Shown here in pieces: positions 38,564 through 61,520 of a stretch of DNA of 64,000 bases. Numbering within the stretch: the stretch's first letter is position 1; each line of letters starts with the position of its first letter. The position numbers and the translations under genes are program-made. The DNA lies in IMG/VR virus record IMGVR_UViG_3300017917_003339, positions 1 to 64,000 of that record; one strand, 5' to 3'. The notes below the pieces were generated by a model, which was not told the origin of the DNA, ran no database searches, and was given only the letters and a program-made list of their open reading frames with translations. Origin of the DNA: a virus.

Positions 38564-40017
38564 TAATATGTGTATTTAAACCACGTTTCATAATTTTTAC
38601 CTAACGCATCCAGCGCTAACTCAACTTCTTTTAAACATTCGTTGATACCGCCACCGACGAGAACTATATTGTTAAGTCTATCTATAAAATCCATAAGGTC
38701 TGGAATGTTAATACAATCATCAGAATCTTCCATAAGTTCTCTTATGTTCTCTGAACCATATTCATCAACAAACGCCCCCCAAAAATCCTCATCTAGCTCC
38801 CTAGAATCGTTTATGTTGTTATCACGCATGAATTTAACTAAGTTTACTAGTTCTTCATCATCACCACCACGGTCCATACAATTCCTAAAGAAGGCATAAC
38901 CCTTGTCGTATAAAGTAGCTTCATAAGCTATATCTTCATCAAGCCCATTTTCAAAAAGCCAATTTCTATACTCACCTTCTGATACCATACCTAAAGTGTC
39001 ATAACCATTGTATAAGAATGTAAGACCAGCTAACTCATCTATGTGTTGGTTGATATATTGAAACAATTTATATTGCATACCACCCATATATGGTGCGTAC
39101 TCTGGTTGAACATCTACCACGACTAAGTGTCTACCAACAGCGCTTTCTTTAATAAGGTCAGATTCTTTAAGTGTTTTTTGTTGTAATTTGTCTACCCCTC
39201 TATTTAATAACTTTTCCCTTACAGAGATATAATAGGTGTATAGTCGTTTAATTAAACGAGTAGCCATTTTAGGTTTAATAACTTTAAACCCTTCAAATTT
39301 TTGTTCAAATTCGTTTTTTACCCTATCAAAAGGCACCATATCAAAAGAACCATCGCTTTTTTTAAAGATTAATCTTAGATTTTTAATTGTTTCTGTGAAT
39401 CTAGCGTTTATTTCGTGTGGTAACCTTAAATAATCTTTGTATTGTTGTGGTGTGATTGGAGCGTTTTCATCTGGATAATCAGCTCTATATTTTGCAACAG
39501 TCTTATTAGCCACATATTTTCTTTTGCTTCTCCAAGCATCATAAGCATGTTGTAATTCATGTGCAACCGTATCACGCATATCATTGGTTATAATATCTTT
39601 ATAAACATTATCAACCATTTGTTCAATTGATTCTTGGGTGATAGGTCCTGATAACTTTGTTAACACATGTCTTTCTAACGATTCTTTAATTTGTTGTGGA
39701 GACAACCTTAATATTAACAAACCATCATCATCTGAATATGGTTTGAATTTCCCTGCGGTGCTATCATCACCTAATGACCTACTAAATTTAACAACTAATT
39801 TAAAATTACTTAAAAAATCATTTATTTTAGTGTATATAGCTTTGGTTTTATCAAATATATTAAAAATAGATGTAAAAACGTTTAAAGCACTTCTTTGTCG
39901 TATTGCAAGATTAACAATATTCCTAATAGCCGCTTTTAAGACATCAGCGCTCAACACACTGATATCCGTAATTGTTTCAAAATCTTCTTTTAATAGTTTT
40001 TTGATTAAATCTCTCAT
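38563..40017 (-). CDS. Two-domain late protein: HExxH metallopeptidase-like plus cysteine-hydrolase (isochorismatase-like) domain
   Basis: AHELQHAYD...HEINA; LVVVDVQPEY...VGGGINECL. Confidence 0.55.
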   Translation of the reverse strand: MRDLIKKLLKEDFETITDISVLSADVLKAAIRNIVNLAIRQRSALNVFTSIFNIFDKTKAIYTKINDFLSNFKLVVKFSRSLGDDSTAGKFKPYSDDDGLLILRLSPQQIKESLERHVLTKLSGPITQESIEQMVDNVYKDIITNDMRDTVAHELQHAYDAWRSKRKYVANKTVAKYRADYPDENAPITPQQYKDYLRLPHEINARFTETIKNLRLIFKKSDGSFDMVPFDRVKNEFEQKFEGFKVIKPKMATRLIKRLYTYYISVREKLLNRGVDKLQQKTLKESDLIKESAVGRHLVVVDVQPEYAPYMGGMQYKLFQYINQHIDELAGLTFLYNGYDTLGMVSEGEYRNWLFENGLDEDIAYEATLYDKGYAFFRNCMDRGGDDEELVNLVKFMRDNNINDSRELDEDFWGAFVDEYGSENIRELMEDSDDCINIPDLMDFIDRLNNIVLVGGGINECLKEVELALDALGKNYETWFKYTY

Positions 40018-40021
40018 TTGA

Positions 40022-40129
40022 TTATTTTAATTTACTTAGAATTTCTTCGTTTTGTCTGATTAATTTAATTCTTTTTACAATGTTACCTCTGTTAGGTTTT
40101 GCTTTGGGTTTTTCTTTTCTTCTTGCCAT
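40022..40129 (-). CDS. Small basic protein (35 aa)
   Basis: MARRKENPKAKPNRGNIVKRIKLIRQNEEILSKLK after GATATTTATA motif. Confidence 0.45.
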   Translation of the reverse strand: MARRKEKPKAKPNRGNIVKRIKLIRQNEEILSKLK

Positions 40130-40163
40130 AATATTGTTTTTACTATAAATATCTGGCCTAAAT

Positions 40164-40189
40164 AAAAAAACCCATCATATGATGGGTTT
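40164..40189 (-). terminator. Rho-independent terminator ending tRNA-like cluster
   Basis: AAACCCATC-ATAT-GATGGGTTT plus T-run. Confidence 0.75.
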
Positions 40190-40191
40190 AG

Positions 40192-40316
40192 TGGAGGGGG
40201 CGGGAATCGAACCACGCGTTTTTCAAATTTACAGTTTGCTTGATAATAAATTTATTTGCTGCAAACATTCTTTAACAGAAGCAGAATGTGTGTTTAACCA
40301 ACATTTCAACCCCTCC
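40192..40316 (-). ncRNA. tRNA-Tyr(GTA)-like RNA with helix+CAGCAA insertion
   Basis: GGAGGGG/CCCCTCC acceptor, T arm, CAAA-CTGTAAA-TTTG; insert ACATTCT..AGAATGT-TTGCAGCAA. Confidence 0.7.
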
Positions 40317-40325
40317 TTGTTTTAG

Positions 40326-40438
40326 AGCCTAGCAGAGGACTCGAACCTCTCCTTATTCACCTAACGCAGCTTGTACAATGCCACTTGGTTCTCTTTCTGC
40401 TGGGATTTGCAGCGTGCTCCCTGATACACTAACTAGGC
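40326..40438 (-). ncRNA. tRNA-like RNA (Thr-type body) with expanded central region containing CCCAGCAG
   Basis: GCCTAGT/GCTAGGC acceptor, D arm GTGT/GCAC, T arm AGAGG-TTCGAGT-CCTCT. Confidence 0.6.
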
Positions 40439-40456
40439 AAATTCATGAAGCTTTTT

Positions 40457-40544
40457 CACACCTGACAGGATTCGAACCTGCAATCTGGGGCTATCTAAAA
40501 CGCAAGTGCTGGGTCCCCATGTGATACCCTTTCACTACAAGCAT
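40457..40544 (-). ncRNA. tRNA-like RNA with 24-nt anticodon loop starting ACCCAGCAC
   Basis: D arm GTGA/TCAC, stem TGGGG/CCCCA, T arm GCAGG-TTCGAAT-CCTGT; weak acceptor. Confidence 0.6.
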
Positions 40545-40765
40545 AATACTCACTTCAAGACTACTCAGTACACGTACTAACCATACCTACGCATCTTTTT
40601 ACTCATTTACCATTCTTTACCGCTTTTTCCCAAAATACCTTATCATGCCCTTCCCATGATTTGGTTTTTAAAGCCTTTGCGTTTGATATATTCTGGAATA
40701 CTCACAGCACGCCTTGATAAACTTTCAATCAACTCTCAATATGCTTTTCAACATACCTTTCATAG

Positions 40766-40797
40766 AGCGGATGACGGGATTCGAACCCGCGACCTCT
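40766..40797 (-). pseudogene. 3' half of a disrupted tRNA (Gly-type acceptor)
   Basis: AGGTCGCGGGTTCGAATCCCGTCATCCGCT; complements 5' half at 41334-41361. Confidence 0.75.
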
Positions 40798-40798
40798 G

Positions 40799-40870
40799 AG
40801 CGACTAACCAGAATCGAACTGGCATCCTCGACTTGGCAAGCCGATGCACTAACCGTTGTGCTATAGTCGC
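40799..40870 (-). tRNA. tRNA-Gly(GCC)
   Basis: Cloverleaf; TCGGC-TTGCCAA-GTCGA; U73. Confidence 0.9.
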
Positions 40871-40871
40871 G

Positions 40872-41276
40872 TTATTTTTTTTCTTGTCTCTTTACCCTAC
40901 GTAATTCTCTACCATTACCTTTATTCAGCGCACCAAATGTTGGTGTTAGAGAATGACAATTAGGGCAAAGTAACTTTAAATTATCCAAAGAATTATTATC
41001 AGAATTCCCATCAATATGTTCTAATTGTATTGGAACGTTATTGGTGATTGGGTTTCTTTCATTCCAACCACATTCCATACATTTTTCACCATATTTGAAA
41101 ATTAAATAATTTCGATAATTATTGATATAAAGAGTGGTATCACCTTTTTCAATATTTTCAAATATTAATTTTCTTTTATGTTCACCTTGGCAGTTATTAT
41201 TACAGTATACATTCCTATTAGGGATTTTACCACCGCAATTTAAACATTCTTTTTCTAATTTTTCTCTTTCTCTCAC
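40872..41276 (-). CDS. HNH homing endonuclease (probable GTG start)
   Basis: CMECGW...LEHIDGNSDNNSLDNLKLLCPNCH. Confidence 0.88.
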   Translation of the reverse strand: MREREKLEKECLNCGGKIPNRNVYCNNNCQGEHKRKLIFENIEKGDTTLYINNYRNYLIFKYGEKCMECGWNERNPITNNVPIQLEHIDGNSDNNSLDNLKLLCPNCHSLTPTFGALNKGNGRELRRVKRQEKK

Positions 41277-41333
41277 GGACAACCTTATTTTATTATAAAT
41301 ATCGGTCGTCCGTGAAAAAGTTAAAAAAAATTT

Positions 41334-41361
41334 GGCGCTCAACCAGCCGAGCTCCATCCGC
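41334..41361 (-). pseudogene. 5' half of disrupted tRNA (GCGGATG acceptor plus D arm)
   Basis: GCGGATG-GA-GCTC-GGCTGGTT-GAGC; pairs with CATCCGC at 40767-40773. Confidence 0.75.
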
Positions 41362-41441
41362 AGTTTGTGGCACTCTCGCCACCCGTCACCTTATCCTGTG
41401 TTGTTTAATTTCGGACGTTTAAGGTCACACCGACGTACTTC

Positions 41442-42248
41442 TTACCAATACCACCATTTAGCTTCGTTTCTTGGTCTGTATTTGAACTCGTAGAAGTCTT
41501 GACTCCAAGCACTTGCACAAGCCCAATTGGTCCAATCACTATCGGTGATAAATTCTTTTTCAGACATCTCAACACCTTGTTCTTTATACCACTCATAAGA
41601 GTCGTTAATGAAATCAGTGTTAAGGTTCTTTTGAAGAGCCATTTTATCATTTCTTCTGTTGGCTTTTTTGTATCTTTTCAAAAATCTAGAATAACCGCTG
41701 TCGTTCCATGGTTTCATTCTAACTTCAATAGCCCAGATTTGGTCTTTGATAAAAGCTCTTTCACTTTCCAACTCACCATCTACCACTTTGCGGTGAGTGA
41801 TGTAGCTGTTTTTGATTTTAGTAACCAAGTAGTGTTGTGGGATGTAAGGAACATAGTAACTATATTCTTGTCCCCAAACAAACTCGGTTCTTTTGTGAAG
41901 ATACTCTTGAACCCATGGTAAAAAACCATCGTATTCTTTTTGAGTGACTCTTCTAAAGTATGGTCTTTTGTCCCACACTTTACCTTTTTTGTTTTTGATA
42001 TAGAACTCTTTGGTTCTAGACCAAGTTTCAACTGCAAAGTTGTCAATAAAGTATTGGTATAACCAAGCTACTCTATCTTCTCGTTTTGCAACATCTTCTC
42101 TTAGAGTTAAGAAAGCGTTGTAACCGTGATGTACTGGTTTTTCAAGCTCAACATAACCTAAATTTCTGATGGCTTGGATAAGCTCATCTTCTCTTTCGCG
42201 TAACGCTAATAAGCGTTTGTAATCTTTGTGTTTTGTGTTTTTACTCAT
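41442..42248 (-). CDS. Hypothetical basic/aromatic protein
   Basis: 268-aa ORF on coding strand. Confidence 0.6.
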   Translation of the reverse strand: MSKNTKHKDYKRLLALREREDELIQAIRNLGYVELEKPVHHGYNAFLTLREDVAKREDRVAWLYQYFIDNFAVETWSRTKEFYIKNKKGKVWDKRPYFRRVTQKEYDGFLPWVQEYLHKRTEFVWGQEYSYYVPYIPQHYLVTKIKNSYITHRKVVDGELESERAFIKDQIWAIEVRMKPWNDSGYSRFLKRYKKANRRNDKMALQKNLNTDFINDSYEWYKEQGVEMSEKEFITDSDWTNWACASAWSQDFYEFKYRPRNEAKWWYW

Positions 42249-42312
42249 TGTTCTCGGTGTTGGTAATTAGTACCTTACCACCTCGAACCTTTAAAAATTG
42301 CCATCATAGTTT

Positions 42313-42579
42313 TTATTTTAAATCAATTTTACCAACTATTGTAAAACCCTTAGGTTTCCATCTTTCTTTTTCTTTGTCACTTATTGTGTTGCCGTTTTTA
42401 CCGACATGAAATTTATGACAAGACTTGCATTTATACGCCACCACTTTGAATTTTCTTTCAGGTAGTGCGTTCACACTCTTAGCGTGCTTGATAGCTTGCT
42501 CAAGTGTGTCGAAGGCTTTTTTAGGTTTATCAACCAATTGACCGTTTATTCTACTTACTACTTGAGTTGTGCAATCCAT
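42313..42579 (-). CDS. Small Zn-finger-like protein
   Basis: YKCKSCHKFHVG. Confidence 0.55.
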   Translation of the reverse strand: MDCTTQVVSRINGQLVDKPKKAFDTLEQAIKHAKSVNALPERKFKVVAYKCKSCHKFHVGKNGNTISDKEKERWKPKGFTIVGKIDLK

Positions 42580-42806
42580 TATGAATTTTCTTTGATGTAT
42601 CTTCTGATTACCGCTTCGCAATCACGCTCAACATCTGGTTGTTTTCTTTTTTTCTTTTGACTTTCCCATTTGTCTTTCTCAACTTCTTTGAAAAACAAAT
42701 CATCAAAAATTTCTACATAACCAATAATTTTATCTTGATAAAGAATATATGTTAAATTGTTGGTTGAATAGAATTTTGGTACGATTCTGAAATCTTCTCT
42801 ATTCAT
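42579..42806 (-). CDS. Hypothetical protein
   Basis: ORF after host-type promoter. Confidence 0.5.
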   Translation of the reverse strand: MNREDFRIVPKFYSTNNLTYILYQDKIIGYVEIFDDLFFKEVEKDKWESQKKKRKQPDVERDCEAVIRRYIKENS

Positions 42807-42845
42807 AATATTTACGTTTTATGATGCAAATATACGAATTATTTT

Positions 42846-43115
42846 TTAAATACCAAAATTTTCTTCACCCATTTTTTTTATTAACACAGCTTCAGAAATA
42901 GCATGTTTAGCATCTTCTAAATCCTTGGCAAATGTAACAACCTCACCATCCCATAGGGTTATTTTAATATAACCATCTTCACCCTTTTCAATGACAGTGT
43001 TTTTCATATCTTCAACCATCTTAGCCAATCGTCTATTTCTACTTTCCCAGTCTCTGAGAAATCTTTTCTTTCCTTCTTCGGTCATAAAACGACCAGTAAA
43101 ACTTAACCCTTTCAT
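42846..43115 (-). CDS. Hypothetical protein
   Basis: ORF after tRNA array. Confidence 0.5.
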   Translation of the reverse strand: MKGLSFTGRFMTEEGKKRFLRDWESRNRRLAKMVEDMKNTVIEKGEDGYIKITLWDGEVVTFAKDLEDAKHAISEAVLIKKMGEENFGI

Positions 43116-43134
43116 AATACTTAAATTTAATTTG

Positions 43135-43207
43135 AGCACTAGACGGGCCTCGAACCCATGACCTCTCCCATACCAAGGGAGTGTTCTGCCTACTGAACTA
43201 CAAGTGC
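43135..43207 (-). tRNA. tRNA-Thr(GGT)
   Basis: CTCCC-TTGGTAT-GGGAG. Confidence 0.88.
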
Positions 43208-43213
43208 ATTTAG

Positions 43214-43287
43214 AGCCTCCGACAGGAATCGAACCTGCGACCTTCTCCTTACAAGGGAGTTGCTCTGGCCTGCTGAGCTACGGAGGC
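43214..43287 (-). tRNA. tRNA-Thr(TGT)
   Basis: CTCC-CTTGTAA-GGAG. Confidence 0.9.
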
Positions 43288-43351
43288 ATAACGGCCTATA
43301 ACGTTTGCCATTCGGTGCATTTTGTTTCTCGCAGAACACTTACTGCTTGTG

Positions 43352-43434
43352 TGAGAGTAGTAGGATTCGAACCTACTCAGGCATAGCCAACGGTTTTACA
43401 GACCGCCCCAGCTCTCCAACTCTGGCGTACTCCC
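43352..43434 (-). tRNA. tRNA-Tyr(GTA)
   Basis: GCGGT-CTGTAAA-ACCGT with long variable arm. Confidence 0.9.
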
Positions 43435-43443
43435 AATATTTAG

Positions 43444-43522
43444 TGGGCCTAGTAGGAATCGAACCTACAAGAATTAACACGATTTTACAGACCGCTGAGC
43501 TCACCACCTGCTCAATAGACCC
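43444..43522 (-). tRNA. tRNA-Tyr(GTA)
   Basis: GCGGT-CTGTAAA-ATCGT. Confidence 0.85.
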
Positions 43523-43527
43523 AAGTT

Positions 43528-43589
43528 CAGGGTGGTGTATCGGTTTCAAATTAAAAGTTTGATGATAATGATTGCTGAAACCACCCTTT
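43528..43589 (-). ncRNA. Helix+CAGCAA RNA presenting an isolated Lys(TTT) anticodon stem-loop
   Basis: AGGGTGGT-TTCAGCAA...TCAAA-CTTTTAA-TTTGA...ACCACCCT-G. Confidence 0.7.
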
Positions 43590-43591
43590 AG

Positions 43592-43663
43592 TTGGAGGAT
43601 AGGGACTCGAACCCTAAAAACGACAGTCAAAGTGTCGTATGTTGCCAATTACATCATCCTCCA
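43592..43663 (-). tRNA. tRNA-Gln(TTG)
   Basis: CGACA-CTTTGAC-TGTCG. Confidence 0.88.
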
Positions 43664-43672
43664 ATATGTTAG

Positions 43673-43754
43673 TTGGGAAAGAGGGACTCGAACCCCCATG
43701 TACTTCGCGTCTTCTGGCTCAAAACCAGAGGTGTTACCATTACACCATTTCCCA
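43673..43754 (-). tRNA. tRNA-Gln(TTG) with long variable region
   Basis: TCTGG-TTTTGAG-CCAGA; 15-nt variable region. Confidence 0.8.
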
Positions 43755-43812
43755 AAATTTCTAATTCTATGCTTGTCCTCACGCAACTCTATGAATTAGT
43801 AACAGTCTCATC
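43755..43812 (-). repeat. Conserved inter-tRNA element, copy 1
   Basis: GATGAGACTGTTA-CTAATTC-ATAG..GCATA-GAATTAG-AAATTT. Confidence 0.8.
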
Positions 43813-43817
43813 AACTG

Positions 43818-43890
43818 AGCGGAAGACGGGACTCGAACCCGCAACCCCCGACTTGGAAGGACGGTGCTCTACCAATTGAGCTACTTCCGC
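43818..43890 (-). tRNA. tRNA-Gly(TCC)
   Basis: GCGGAAG acceptor; loop CTTCCAA. Confidence 0.9.
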
Positions 43891-43952
43891 AAATTTTTAA
43901 TTCTATGCAGACACTTACAAATGGGCCCCTATGAATTAATAACAGTCTCTTC
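43891..43952 (-). repeat. Conserved inter-tRNA element, copy 2
   Basis: GAAGAGACTGTTA-TTAATTC-ATAG..GCATA-GAATTAA-AAATTT. Confidence 0.8.
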
Positions 43953-43955
43953 TCG

Positions 43956-44031
43956 TCGGGATGACTGGACTCGAACCAGCATGATGTCCTGCTCCCAAAG
44001 CAGGCGACTTAACCAATTAGTCCACATCCCG
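43956..44031 (-). tRNA. tRNA-Pro(TGG)
   Basis: CCTGC-TTTGGGA-GCAGG; C1-G72, A73. Confidence 0.9.
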
Positions 44032-44568
44032 TTTAAATTTTTCTACATATTCTAAAACCGTTTCTTCTATTAAATTTCTATACCTACTATGCCAATAAGC
44101 ATGATGTGTTGCACATAGAGGTATTAAATTCTCAGGTTTATTATTGTTTCTATCCCCATCTAAATGGTGAACATCTAACAATAATTTTTCATCACAAACA
44201 ACACATTTATGTTCGTGGTGTAAGAAACATGTTGACCTGTATGCATGTTCTTTCCAGTTTGGGTTTTTATCACCACTTCTAAAGAAAGAGTTTGCACAAG
44301 CATGAGAACATGTAATTTTTTCTCTTTTTGAACCTGATTGAGTTTCAAATTCATTCTCACAAACAGGACAAATTTTAATTATTCGTTCATATTTGAGAAA
44401 ATGTTTTTTCTTTCTATTAGGTTCAAATTTTAAACCATTTATTTCAAATAACGCATCTAACTTTTTATACCCAGCACCATTATTGCTGATATTTAACCTT
44501 TTACAAGCTTCATTTTTAGAACTACATTCTAGTATAATTTTTTCTAATTCTTCTTTTTCGATATTCAT
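44017..44568 (-). CDS. HNH homing endonuclease
   Basis: CPVC, CSHAC, CVVC..DVHHLDGDRNNNKPENLIPLCATHH; stop lies inside tRNA-Pro. Confidence 0.88.
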   Translation of the reverse strand: MNIEKEELEKIILECSSKNEACKRLNISNNGAGYKKLDALFEINGLKFEPNRKKKHFLKYERIIKICPVCENEFETQSGSKREKITCSHACANSFFRSGDKNPNWKEHAYRSTCFLHHEHKCVVCDEKLLLDVHHLDGDRNNNKPENLIPLCATHHAYWHSRYRNLIEETVLEYVEKFKRDVD

Positions 44569-44631
44569 AACTTATTTTTATTATAAATATCATCAAATGT
44601 CGAAAAAATCACTTTTGGGAAATTTTATTTT

Positions 44632-44675
44632 CTGCATCCCAAATGCAGCGGATTAGCCAACTTTCCCACTACCCG
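44632..44675 (-). pseudogene. Truncated tRNA-Pro(TGG), 5' two-thirds only
   Basis: CGGGTAG, D arm, CTGCA-TTTGGGA-TGCAG, then no T arm. Confidence 0.8.
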
Positions 44676-44684
44676 TAATATTTG

Positions 44685-44758
44685 TACCCCCGAAGGGACT
44701 CGAACCCATGACCCCCCGCTTAAAAGGCGGGTGCTCTAACCAACTGAGCTACGAAGGC
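44685..44758 (-). tRNA. tRNA-Lys(TTT)
   Basis: CCCGC-CTTTTAA-GCGGG. Confidence 0.9.
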
Positions 44759-44763
44759 ATTTG

Positions 44764-44836
44764 TTCCCCCGACGGGCCTCGAACCCGCTACCCACTGGTT
44801 AAAAGCCAGTTGCCCGTCCACATGAGCTTCGAAGGA
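44764..44836 (-). tRNA. tRNA-Lys(TTT)
   Basis: ACTGG-CTTTTAA-CCAGT. Confidence 0.88.
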
Positions 44837-44853
44837 ATTTATATTTCTATTTG

Positions 44854-44925
44854 TTCCCCCGCCCAGAGTCGAACTGGATTCCGTAGATTAAAAGTCTACT
44901 GCATCACCACCAATGCTTCGAGGGA
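44854..44925 (-). tRNA. tRNA-Lys(TTT)
   Basis: GTAGA-CTTTTAA-TCTAC. Confidence 0.85.
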
Positions 44926-45009
44926 ATATGTATCTTGCCCCTCAAAACATTGAGGGAATTACTGTTTACTCTTTATCTTCTTTATTGTTTTCATTGTTTT
45001 TATTTTATT

Positions 45010-45087
45010 TGGCCTCCCAGAAGGATTCGAACCTTCCATCCATAAGCCCCCAATGGGCTGCGCTTTTCCTACTAAGCTATGGGACGC
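45010..45087 (-). ncRNA. Atypical tRNA-like gene (loop CATTGGG; Gln/Pro-like)
   Basis: D and T arms intact, CCA encoded; non-canonical anticodon loop and acceptor top. Confidence 0.55.
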
Positions 45088-45101
45088 ATATTTTATTTTT
45101 G

Positions 45102-45196
45102 TCTGGTAAACAGGATTCGAACCTGTGGTAGACACTACCTTTGTGCCCACATCGGATTCCAAGTCCGACCGCTTAAACCATCTCGCGCATTACCAG
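45102..45196 (-). tRNA. tRNA-Pro(TGG) with long (class II-like) variable arm
   Basis: CTGGTAA/TTACCAG, A73; TCGGA-CTTGGAA-TCCGA; 25-nt variable arm. Confidence 0.75.
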
Positions 45197-45210
45197 TTAT
45201 TTTGTTGCAT

Positions 45211-45246
45211 AAAAAAACCCAGTTTAGATTTTACTCTGAACTGGGT
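45211..45246 (-). terminator. Attenuator terminator A
   Basis: ACCCAGTTCAGA-GTAAAA-TCTAAACTGGGT-TTTTTT just 5' of first tRNA. Confidence 0.88.
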
Positions 45247-45271
45247 CTATAATTTGTACTTGCGTACTTTA

Positions 45272-45373
45272 TTATATTGTTGTCAAGTCTGAAAACATGA
45301 CATACCCAGTCGACCTGAACGGTTTCCCGCCCTTAGGTTGATATTGCGTTTGATATGTTTTAGTTGTTTTCAT
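45272..45373 (-). CDS. Leader peptide A (33 aa) MKTTKTYQTQYQPKGGKPFRSTGYVMFSDLTTI
   Basis: Manual translation; codons 2-18 encode only K,T,Y,Q,P,G; contains antiterminator GACTGGGT. Confidence 0.85.
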   Translation of the reverse strand: MKTTKTYQTQYQPKGGKPFRSTGYVMFSDLTTI

Positions 45374-45390
45374 AACTTTGTTTTTTGTTT

Positions 45391-45481
45391 TGTTTATAAA
45401 TATGTTGTTTTTTAAAAAAATTCTGTTTTTGTTTATTAATTTTTACAATGCAAAGATACTAACTATTATAATACAAGTCAA
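45391..45481 (-). promoter_or_regulatory. Dual promoter of leader A: host-type TTGAC..TATCTTTG and phage ACATATTTATAAAC motif
   Basis: TATCTTTG at 45451-45458, TATTTATA at 45395-45402; homologous to 61925-62015. Confidence 0.7.
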
Positions 45482-45515
45482 GTTTTTTTGTAAAAAAATT
45501 TAAAATATTTTATAA

Positions 45516-45995
45516 CTACTTGAATTTCAGTTTAATATCCATTGAAATTTTTTCTGGCGCTGGGGTTGAACCACCGAAATATGGGTTTAATTGGTATCTT
45601 ACAAAATCCCATGATGAGGTTCTTTTTGCCGCCACAACTGATTTATTGATTCTTATCTTGTAATAATCGTCAAGAATATCAATTGCAAAATAGTGTTGTT
45701 TGTTAGGTTCCACGTGTGTTATTGCAAACACACTTCTAACGGTATTGTTGTAAATTATCCCAACTATCTCAACCATGTCTGGATATCTTGGGTTGTATCT
45801 CCAACCGATTCTAACGCTATCAATATGGTGTGACCAGCTATCTGATAACCCAATTAGTTTGTTTGAATCCTTTTGTTTTGGTATTGAATACTTGTAACCA
45901 TCTATAAAGGTAAAGACCCCACTTATGGAGTCTTTGATAGTGAACGTTGGAATCAACGTACTTCTATGTTTACCTTTATTGATAGTGTATATCAT
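45516..45995 (-). CDS. Hypothetical protein (possible beta-sandwich)
   Basis: ORF on coding strand; PYFGG motif. Confidence 0.5.
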   Translation of the reverse strand: MIYTINKGKHRSTLIPTFTIKDSISGVFTFIDGYKYSIPKQKDSNKLIGLSDSWSHHIDSVRIGWRYNPRYPDMVEIVGIIYNNTVRSVFAITHVEPNKQHYFAIDILDDYYKIRINKSVVAAKRTSSWDFVRYQLNPYFGGSTPAPEKISMDIKLKFK

Positions 45996-46168
45996 TTTCT
46001 TCTGTAAGAGTTTATCGCAAAATATGTTAGTGCTATAAAGCTGTAACCGATGTATAGACCACAAGGGATTGTTATAAATTTAGACCAAGCTTCATCTTGG
46101 AAAAGAAGACCTACAAAACCTAGTATGGCCGATGTTACTAATAAATATAAATTTACTTTCATTTATTT

Positions 46169-59735: not shown

Positions 59736-59856
59736 CGGACGCAGTGGGACTCGAACCCACAGCTTTTTCGTGACAGGAAAATTAACTAATGCTGCTGGAG
59801 ATAACCTTGTCAGGTTATGACTTGTTTTTAACATGTTACCCTTACACCATACGTCC
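59736..59856 (-). ncRNA. tRNA-Asp(GTC) with ~50-nt helix+CAGCAG insertion before the anticodon stem
   Basis: GGACGTA/TGCGTCC-G73; TTTTC-CTGTCAC-GAAAA; insert ATAACCT-GACA-AGGTTAT-CTCCAGCAG. Confidence 0.8.
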
Positions 59857-60524: not shown

Positions 60525-61163
60525 TTATTTTCTCCCTTTTAACCAACCTTCGTTTAAATAAGTTTCAAGGTCTTCTTTTTTAATTTTTTTGTTAGTACCA
60601 TCCTTGGTTATCCAACATGTACCATATTGACTGTTTGTTTCACCAGTCCCAGTACCTTTTCTTTTTTCTGATATTAATTGTTTAGTTTCTTCCGAATGAC
60701 ATTTACCTTCAAAAGTATTATAATTAATTTTACCTAATTTATGTGCTTTTTTTAATGTTTCAGATGATATTTCTGTATGTTTTTTAAAAAACTCTTCATC
60801 AATTTTTAATTTGTCAGAAAACGCTTTTCCACCAGCCTTAATACATTTCTCCATATGTTCTTTATTAGCAAAACCACCTTGACCACCTTCTTTTAAATTC
60901 ATACATAAACCATCAGATATCAACTCTTTTGTTATAATTTCAATCTCTCTAAGAACTAATTTTTCTCTTGTTGGTAAAAATTCTAATATTTCTTTTGTAT
61001 GGTTTTCAACACCATATTTCCTAATACTATATCTTAATATCTTACCACTTCCCATGTAACCGTCATCTAATTTCGTAGTTGAATGCATTCCAATATACCA
61101 TCTTCCTGTTACATTACATGTTGTTTTATATATGTAATGTATATTTGCTTTTTTTCTTGCCAT
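60525..61163 (-). CDS. GIY-YIG (Seg-like) homing endonuclease with NUMOD3-like region
   Basis: YIYKTT..TGRWYIG.H..YMGSG...NLKEGG; HSEETKQLISEK. Confidence 0.88.
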   Translation of the reverse strand: MARKKANIHYIYKTTCNVTGRWYIGMHSTTKLDDGYMGSGKILRYSIRKYGVENHTKEILEFLPTREKLVLREIEIITKELISDGLCMNLKEGGQGGFANKEHMEKCIKAGGKAFSDKLKIDEEFFKKHTEISSETLKKAHKLGKINYNTFEGKCHSEETKQLISEKRKGTGTGETNSQYGTCWITKDGTNKKIKKEDLETYLNEGWLKGRK

Positions 61164-61356: not shown

Positions 61357-61520
61357 TAGGAATGAGTGGATTCGAACCACTGACCTTCTCCCTTATGATG
61401 GGAGTCGTTCTGAATGTGTTTTTTCAACCAACTTAATGGTAATTCATTAAGCACACACCCCGATTGTTGTTATTTACCATCTCCTTAAGGAGCCAATCAG
61501 ACCGCTGAACGTACATTCCT
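61357..61520 (-). ncRNA. tRNA(CAT), Ile2/Met, with ~90-nt structured insertion in the D loop
   Basis: AGGAATG/CATTCCT; GTTC..GAAC D stem split by insert; CTCCC-ATCATAA-GGGAG. Confidence 0.75.

Follow-up and report, generated by a model that had tools for sequence, protein, structure and literature searches.

The tRNA gene cluster of phage T4 carries SegB, a free-standing GIY-YIG homing endonuclease that cuts the tRNA genes of phages lacking SegB and spreads along with neighbouring tRNA genes (PMC2330249). In phage T6, SegB brings about the amplification of a unit made up of tRNA and segB, and its homologues show strong enrichment beside tRNAs (PMC13096335). HNH-type enzymes, F-TflI, II and IV, are encoded by ORFs between the tRNA genes of the large virulent phage T5 (as cited in PMC2330249). 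These T5 ORFs are intergenic, and the portions of text covered by our search mention no nested tRNA-in-tRNA layout for them. A different arrangement is that of MobE, whose free-standing HNH gene reportedly splits nrdA of Aeromonas phage Aeh1 into 'genes in pieces' with neither an intron nor an intein. Group I introns with endonuclease genes are known in the anticodon loops of bacterial tRNAs, and the cleave-and-rescue and home-and-rescue drives ClvR and HomeR are synthetic, engineered Cas9 systems in insects. To our knowledge, the prior view has been that homing endonucleases enter useful genes only within introns or inteins, or else sit between genes.

We analysed the first 64 kb (hereafter, the window) of a 92.5-kb IMG/VR virus contig with a G+C content of 35.8%. 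CheckV puts the completeness of the contig at about a quarter, and the phage is therefore large. ARAGORN gave 47 tRNA calls, every one of them on the minus strand. At one site in the window, a resident tRNA-Gly(GCC) gene is interrupted by an HNH endonuclease gene and an intact tRNA-Gly(GCC). We consider it probable, at roughly 70%, that this cassette is a free-standing homing endonuclease together with a same-anticodon replacement tRNA, making up a natural 'home-and-rescue' element.

Like SegB, the HNH gene of the window is a free-standing nuclease gene in a phage tRNA array, and in both cases a hairpin covering the start and tRNA processing at the 3' end are thought to restrain expression. 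SegB differs in belonging to another nuclease fold, in recognising the conserved T-loop and cutting the 3' ends of many tRNA genes, and in sitting between genes, with no reported split target that holds a nested replacement of the same anticodon. As in Aeh1, an HNH gene lies inside a useful gene in an intron-free and intein-free manner, but the nrdA pieces reportedly still yield a working split protein, whereas here the presumed target is destroyed and its function would be supplied by a second gene of the cassette. The position of the site in the anticodon region, and the carriage of a nuclease gene without the cost of a tRNA, are shared with the group I introns of tRNA genes; unlike these, the cassette has no ribozyme, the anticodon loop is deleted and function would be kept by replacement. 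As in ClvR and HomeR, a nuclease thought to destroy a useful gene is linked to a recoded copy, here presumed to resist cleavage, but the element described here occurs naturally in a phage, its nuclease consists of protein only, and its presumed target is an RNA gene. We found no account of a nuclease plus a replacement tRNA nested in a tRNA gene in the full-text literature outside the subscription journals. What appears to be new is the nested architecture, in which an element sits inside its presumed target, destroys it, and brings along a same-anticodon replacement for all or part of it.

An HNH gene and an intact tRNA-Gly(GCC) between the halves of a tRNA gene

The resident tRNA-Gly(GCC), here called allele A, is present as two dead fragments on the minus strand. 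The 27-nt 5' half (41361..41335; tRNA positions 1-27) comprises the acceptor strand GCGGATG, the D arm and base 1 of the anticodon stem. The 33-nt 3' half (40798..40766; tRNA positions 41-73), which shows up as an orphan T arm in a scan, runs from the final 3 nt of the anticodon stem through the variable loop and T arm to the acceptor strand CATCCGC and the discriminator T. The acceptor strands of these outer halves pair perfectly over 7 bp. Missing from both halves are positions 28-40, which make up most of the anticodon stem and the whole of its loop. Alignments with five related loci (L004, L005, L034, L035 and L037) place an insert of 536 nt (41334..40799, minus strand) where these 13 nt of allele A would be. 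The insert runs, in order, through a T-rich stretch, a hairpin containing GATATTTATAATA, the HNH ORF, one spacer base and the intact tRNA-Gly(GCC); the ORF and this cargo tRNA occupy all of it except 58 nt, which are taken up by the promoter and hairpin.

A search of window positions 39500-46000 gave no match to an Rfam intron or ribozyme family at E values up to 1, and in 15 related loci no group I intron or other ribozyme reached the Rfam gathering score. Since there is no ribozyme and 13 nt of the anticodon stem-loop are missing, the arrangement is intron-free and the resident gene is dead; a hypothetical joining of the outer halves would produce an RNA without an anticodon arm.

The HNH (His-Me finger) endonuclease gene (41276..40872, minus strand) starts with GTG and encodes 134 aa. 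It matches PHROG HNH families at E 3e-16 and scores 21.2 bits against the Pfam HNH model, slightly below the cut-off of 21.4, and it has a treble-clef zinc ribbon. Its translation contains an EHIDGNSDNN...CPNCH motif and a CMECG pair, with both the catalytic motif (His, Asn/Asn and His) and the zinc motif (paired CxxC ligands) intact, as expected of a member of the HNH (beta-beta-alpha metal finger) group. The gene is free-standing, being a separate gene with its own promoter-like motif and no intron around it.

The cargo tRNA-Gly(GCC), or allele B (72 nt; 40870..40799, minus strand), is called by ARAGORN and matches the full Rfam tRNA model at 66.3 bits; its predicted fold is the canonical cloverleaf of a bacterial-type tRNA-Gly(GCC). 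The bacterial glycine identity set comprises G1:C72, C2:G71, G3:C70, U73, C35 and C36, all of which can be read in allele B. Alleles A and B are 60% identical, and allele B is the sole Gly(GCC) tRNA of the 92.5-kb contig. An exact search of viral contigs with the first 26 nt of the cargo tRNA, aimed at the cassette donor, found nothing. Tandem segmental amplification of the SegB type (PMC13096335) was considered for this pair of alleles and rejected, given their 60% identity and their nested rather than tandem arrangement.

These features agree closely with the earlier note on this DNA, which had described two halves of one Gly-type tRNA, a perfect acceptor stem between them, and a promoter-like motif, an HNH gene and an intact, divergent tRNA-Gly(GCC) enclosed by them: in a script check its coordinates for the halves proved correct to within 1 nt, the stem pairs over all 7 bp, and each of the three enclosed elements was located. 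Its view of the locus as an intron-free insertion that breaks a resident tRNA and supplies a replacement copy is also supported, given the lack of a ribozyme, the loss of 13 nt of the anticodon stem-loop, and the canonical form of the cassette tRNA, besides which the contig has no Gly(GCC) tRNA.

The promoter-like motif GATATTTATAATA (41303..41291, minus strand) lies in the loop of a hairpin (41320..41266, minus strand) whose arms, at 41320..41304 and 41284..41266, form a 17-bp stem. The predicted folding energy is -27.5 kcal/mol (z -7.4), and 0/200 shuffled sequences fold as well. The motif is found at 6 sites in the window against 0.5 expected, upstream of coding-strand genes that include a second HNH gene and the ORF at 40129; this recurrence indicates that the promoter of the cassette is of a type used in this phage group. 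The 3' arm of the hairpin contains both the ribosome-binding site and the GTG start of the HNH gene. Hairpins of different sequence that likewise bury the start are found with related HNH genes in L006, L008, L009, L010 and L011 (z -3.4 to -7.5).

In T4, intron endonucleases are under hairpin control, such that read-through transcripts are silent and those starting inside the hairpin are active, and the same type of control has been proposed for SegB and MobE (PMC2330249). By this rule, read-through transcripts of the tRNA operon would fold the hairpin and bury the start codon, and transcripts begun at the promoter in the hairpin loop would have no 5' arm and could be translated. At the other end of the gene, the cargo tRNA starts 1 nt past the HNH stop codon, and the ORF of a second, proline cassette described below runs into its tRNA, so that tRNA processing would cut the mRNA at or before the stop, as has been described for the 3' end of the segB ORF (PMC2330249). 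Expression of the cassette appears to obey the T4 homing-endonuclease rule.

Relatives of the site and of the enzyme

Related phages were found by searching with the neighbouring 268-aa protein, which yielded two viral and six metagenome contigs. The check proposed in the earlier note, a comparison with such relatives for the uninterrupted allele, came out as it had anticipated: in relatives lacking the HNH, exactly this site is occupied by a single intact tRNA-Gly(GCC) of the GCGGATG type. A single uninterrupted tRNA-Gly(GCC) of 73 nt is present in L005, L035, L036, L037 and L039. Its leader is common to the window and all five, and its trailer to four of them, the downstream sequence of L005 being different. 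Compared with the two halves in the window, the intact allele is identical at 27/27 and 33/33 positions in L005, L035, L036 and L039, and at 26/27 and 33/33 positions in L037. Because this allele A of the relatives matches both halves and also includes the 13 nt (positions 28-40) absent from the window, the allele of the window is an insertion-plus-deletion derivative of allele A. The unbroken gene at the same spot in five related phages thus argues for an insertion, and not for an intron or an assembly error. Contigs L027 to L033, which share the T arm and acceptor of allele A, were left out of this comparison.

The closest relative, L034, has flanks that are identical to those of the window at 298/300 positions on each side (99.3%). 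At the site itself it has no HNH gene and carries a different intact tRNA-Gly(GCC), allele A2, and L004 has yet another tRNA-Gly allele; several tRNA-Gly(GCC) alleles circulate in this phage group. The HNH gene is polymorphic in its presence, being absent from the site in L034, L005, L035, L036, L037 and L039. The flanks of the window are of the L034 type up to the tRNA edges, and the tRNA halves are of the L035 type, which implies that exchange of the tRNA gene is confined to a very tight tract and proceeds on a much shorter time scale than that of its surroundings. Over their 60 nt the dead halves are unchanged (0 differences) relative to alleles whose flanks differ by 8-12%, which points to a recent insertion event. 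Cultured phages include no close DNA relatives, the matches among them being confined to short HNH or tRNA stretches. Just after the tRNA-Gly at the homologous site, L004 has an ORF that resembles class I aminoacyl-tRNA synthetases and contains HVGH and KMSSR motifs (L004:7050-8216), and L005 has a gene for a 238-aa DUF3223 protein with an HxDH motif (L005:3392-4108).

Relatives of the HNH enzyme at 35-68% identity are encoded on 20 viral contigs, nearly all of them in or beside tRNA arrays and most adjoining a tRNA gene. All those with at least 57% identity (L006 to L013) adjoin tRNA-Gly(GCC), and the tRNAs next to the more distant ones are those for Thr, Val, Glu or Met. In L006, L007 and L009 to L013 the linked tRNA-Gly(GCC) comes just before the promoter; in L008 and in the window it comes just after the HNH stop codon. 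The upstream position in the majority of close relatives is a point against the home-and-rescue reading, since it makes the unit that moved here a permuted form. The insert starts with the usual CAAA trailer, which in L006 and L008 comes after a tRNA 3' end, and stops exactly where the cargo tRNA does; as read from its sequence it is a single permuted unit of trailer, HNH and tRNA.

Among cultured phages, Enterococcus phage iF6 gives the best match, an ORF without annotation (MT909815.1; L042:1393-1905) that is 47% identical. It lies between tRNA-Phe and tRNA-Thr, and its 3' end overlaps the 5' end of tRNA-Thr; the feature table of this record has the tRNAs on the strand opposite to that called by ARAGORN. 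Weak relatives of the window's HNH are present in T5-like phages. Solved structures yielded no informative match. A third HNH gene of the contig, encoding 151 aa on the minus strand at about 91903-92358 (L002:1484-1939), has a core related to the glycine-cassette enzyme and no adjacent tRNA.

The 134-aa enzyme is a short form, a feature that the earlier note does not mention, and consists of one zinc ribbon and the HNH core. Its closest relatives have 215-237 aa and include an N-terminal Myb-like domain and an extra zinc ribbon, and it is this N-terminal part, with the Myb-like domain of about 85 aa and the first zinc ribbon, that the window enzyme does not have. The homologous promoter region is kept in the window, and the start of the ORF then corresponds to an internal Met of L006. 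Some of the apparatus for recognising DNA may thus have been lost, and the element may be decaying. By this account an active long-form HNH made the insertion, and the present gene, deprived of its N-terminal DNA-binding part, no longer homes and leaves the locus as a scar that is heading for deletion. We take this to be unlikely, though it carries real weight among the alternatives. The ORF is intact, as are the catalytic and zinc ligands, and a 17-bp hairpin has been built round the new GTG start. Elsewhere, L016 and L020 encode natural forms that share this architecture at about 130 aa, and the lack of change in the dead halves marks the event as recent.

The nested layout at other tRNA genes and its possible origin

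An unrelated, more G+C-rich phage, assembled from two samples (L018 and L019), has the same nested layout. Its order is a 5' tRNA half, a ribosome-binding site, an HNH gene (44% identical), an intact tRNA-Val(TAC), 5 nt, and a 3' half; the tRNA-Val(TAC) overlaps the end of the HNH ORF, and the acceptor strands of the outer halves pair. Intact tRNAs with the T arm and acceptor of L018 are present on 30 other viral contigs, and all of them are Val(TAC) (30/30), with a 5' part that matches the L018 half. The loss, of about 12 nt of the anticodon stem-loop, is similar to that in the window. A search for the intact allele with the 5' half of L018 matched only L018 and L019 themselves. In L008, from a more distant member of the window's phage group, the HNH gene is followed by tRNA-Gly(GCC) and then directly by the 3' remnant of another tRNA; this junction is of the same kind as that in the window, and the 5' half is gone.

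The window contains a second cassette (44675..43956, minus strand), in which an HNH gene lies between pieces of tRNA-Pro. It begins with a dead 44-nt 5' piece of tRNA-Pro(TGG) (44675..44632, minus strand), which matches the intact gene of L037 at 42/44 positions. A promoter-like motif precedes the 183-aa ORF of a different, unrelated HNH (44568..44017, minus strand), for which no relatives were found in viral contigs, and the end of this ORF overlaps a complete tRNA-Pro(TGG) (44031..43956, minus strand). The complete tRNA is a chimera, with a new D arm, anticodon arm and variable loop and with the resident T arm, 3' acceptor strand and trailer. Set against ClvR and HomeR, where a recoded copy is also linked to the nuclease, the proline cassette supplies the 5' two-thirds in recoded form, joined to the 3' third that remains of the resident gene. 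In the three resolved cases (Gly, Val and Pro), the anticodon of the replacement tRNA is that of the destroyed gene (3/3).

As a home-and-rescue element, the glycine cassette would act on a putative HNH target in the anticodon-arm DNA of sensitive tRNA-Gly(GCC) alleles. In a mixed infection, the HNH would cut the intact allele, and the break would be repaired from the cassette-bearing genome with the tRNA halves and conserved flanks as homology arms. The recipient would end up with a broken resident gene, the nuclease, and a divergent, presumably uncuttable tRNA, so that glycine decoding would be kept. The first insertion would have to have been illegitimate, by repair of a microhomology type. 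We infer both the cutting of the intact allele in the anticodon arm and the resistance of the cargo tRNA. Phage tRNAs are often dispensable, and the 'rescue' may therefore not be under selection. Both junctions are known from one metagenome assembly.

If this reading is true, the element offsets the damage it does by bringing a replacement gene, a design that was later engineered as cleave-and-rescue drives. It would also explain features of the tRNA arrays of large phages, namely divergent duplicates, tRNA fragments, and alleles that change between flanks that are 99% identical. For practical use, pairs of enzyme and target are on offer, and a nuclease that tells tRNA genes apart by their anticodon arm could be a specificity module.

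Alternatively, the HNH gene and tRNA might have landed together by illegitimate recombination that did not involve the HNH, as passengers that were tolerated only through their Gly(GCC) tRNA. We hold this to be quite improbable, although several observations fit it: tRNA arrays are recombination hot spots, microhomology at the junctions is 2-4 nt at most, the insert edges coincide with a tRNA 3' end and the usual CAAA trailer, and tandem same-anticodon tRNA duplicates are common in these arrays. Such passive landing does not account for a break that falls independently in the anticodon arm for Gly and Val, and next to that arm, within the variable loop, for Pro, nor for the identity of the nested anticodon in all three cases, nor for an HNH clade that tracks tRNA-Gly(GCC).

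An assembly chimera of two phage strains with different tRNA-Gly alleles is very hard to sustain. The contig does come from a metagenome assembly, and several tRNA-Gly(GCC) alleles exist in this phage group, but the joins of a chimera would each have to lie in a shared repeat, and there is no repeat at either junction. The flanks are moreover collinear with those of six relatives, and the same nested layout was assembled independently in the two samples of L018 and L019.

That the halves are rejoined in RNA to give a functional outer tRNA, whether as the exons of a self- or enzyme-spliced intron or by trans-assembly, is scarcely credible in spite of the retained 7-bp acceptor stem and the precedent of group I introns in bacterial tRNA anticodon loops, as both halves lack the whole anticodon loop, Rfam intron models find no match at E up to 1, and the ORF and tRNA leave 58 nt of the insert for anything else. 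Two described classes were rejected for the locus on similar grounds: a tRNA interrupted by a group I intron, given the lack of a ribozyme core and of positions 28-40 in the exons, and a split or permuted tRNA of the Nanoarchaeum type, given the 13 missing nt that include the anticodon and the lack of a complementary leader at the break.

To return to home-and-rescue, a broader version of this reading is that such cassettes are a widespread, undescribed class of mobile elements of large phages, in which each HNH clade recognises one tRNA species by the DNA of its anticodon arm, destroys that gene and puts a recoded tRNA of the same anticodon in its place. We offer this tentatively, and with more doubt than belief. 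If it were true, the cassettes would be a main engine of the rapid turnover, duplication and scarring in phage tRNA arrays, and the altered anticodon arms of incoming tRNAs might evade host defences that cut tRNAs.

Other tRNA-like genes in the arrays

Another tRNA array of the window contains a GIY-YIG/NUMOD3 homing-endonuclease gene (60525-61163, minus strand; 212 aa; PHROG homing endonuclease, E 9e-38), with an odd tRNA call on one side and tRNA-Glu on the other. ARAGORN misses two tRNA-like genes that have large insertions within them, at 61357-61520 and 59736-59856 (minus strand). In one, the acceptor strands pair, the anticodon arm carries CAT and the D loop is enlarged by about 90 nt; the other resembles Asp(GTC) and has about 50 additional nt separating its D arm from its anticodon arm. 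These genes may be scars of earlier cassettes or may contain unusual introns.

Several tRNA-like elements are found close to the glycine site. A conserved element of about 130 nt (40186-40316, minus strand), also present in L004, L005, L034, L035, L037 and L008, has a 7-bp tRNA-like acceptor stem, in which 3 pairs show compensatory changes, and a T arm; where the D and anticodon arms would be, it has two internal hairpins. Its appearance is that of a tmRNA-like or tRNA-like element, and it is called by neither Rfam nor ARAGORN. At 40325-40437 (minus strand) is a tRNA-like sequence with paired acceptor strands and with D and T arms, whose anticodon loop is odd and which has gained about 46 nt as an insert; L035 and L037 have an ordinary second tRNA-Gly(GCC) at this position, and that of L035 is identical to allele A2 of L034. 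The glycine tRNA site is followed by a conserved spacer of about 310 nt (40457-40765, minus strand) that ends in a tRNA-like T arm and acceptor. The segment at 40457-40544 scores 38 bits against the Rfam tRNA model and has no ARAGORN call.

Two further tRNA calls are unusual in their variable region. The first, of 96 nt (45101-45196, minus strand), has a TGG anticodon and a long type II-like variable arm, and the second is a tRNA-Gln of 83 nt (43672-43754, minus strand) with an enlarged variable region. The tRNAs of the window often occur as divergent tandem pairs or triplets, as seen for Lys (three copies), Gln, Tyr, Asp and Phe.
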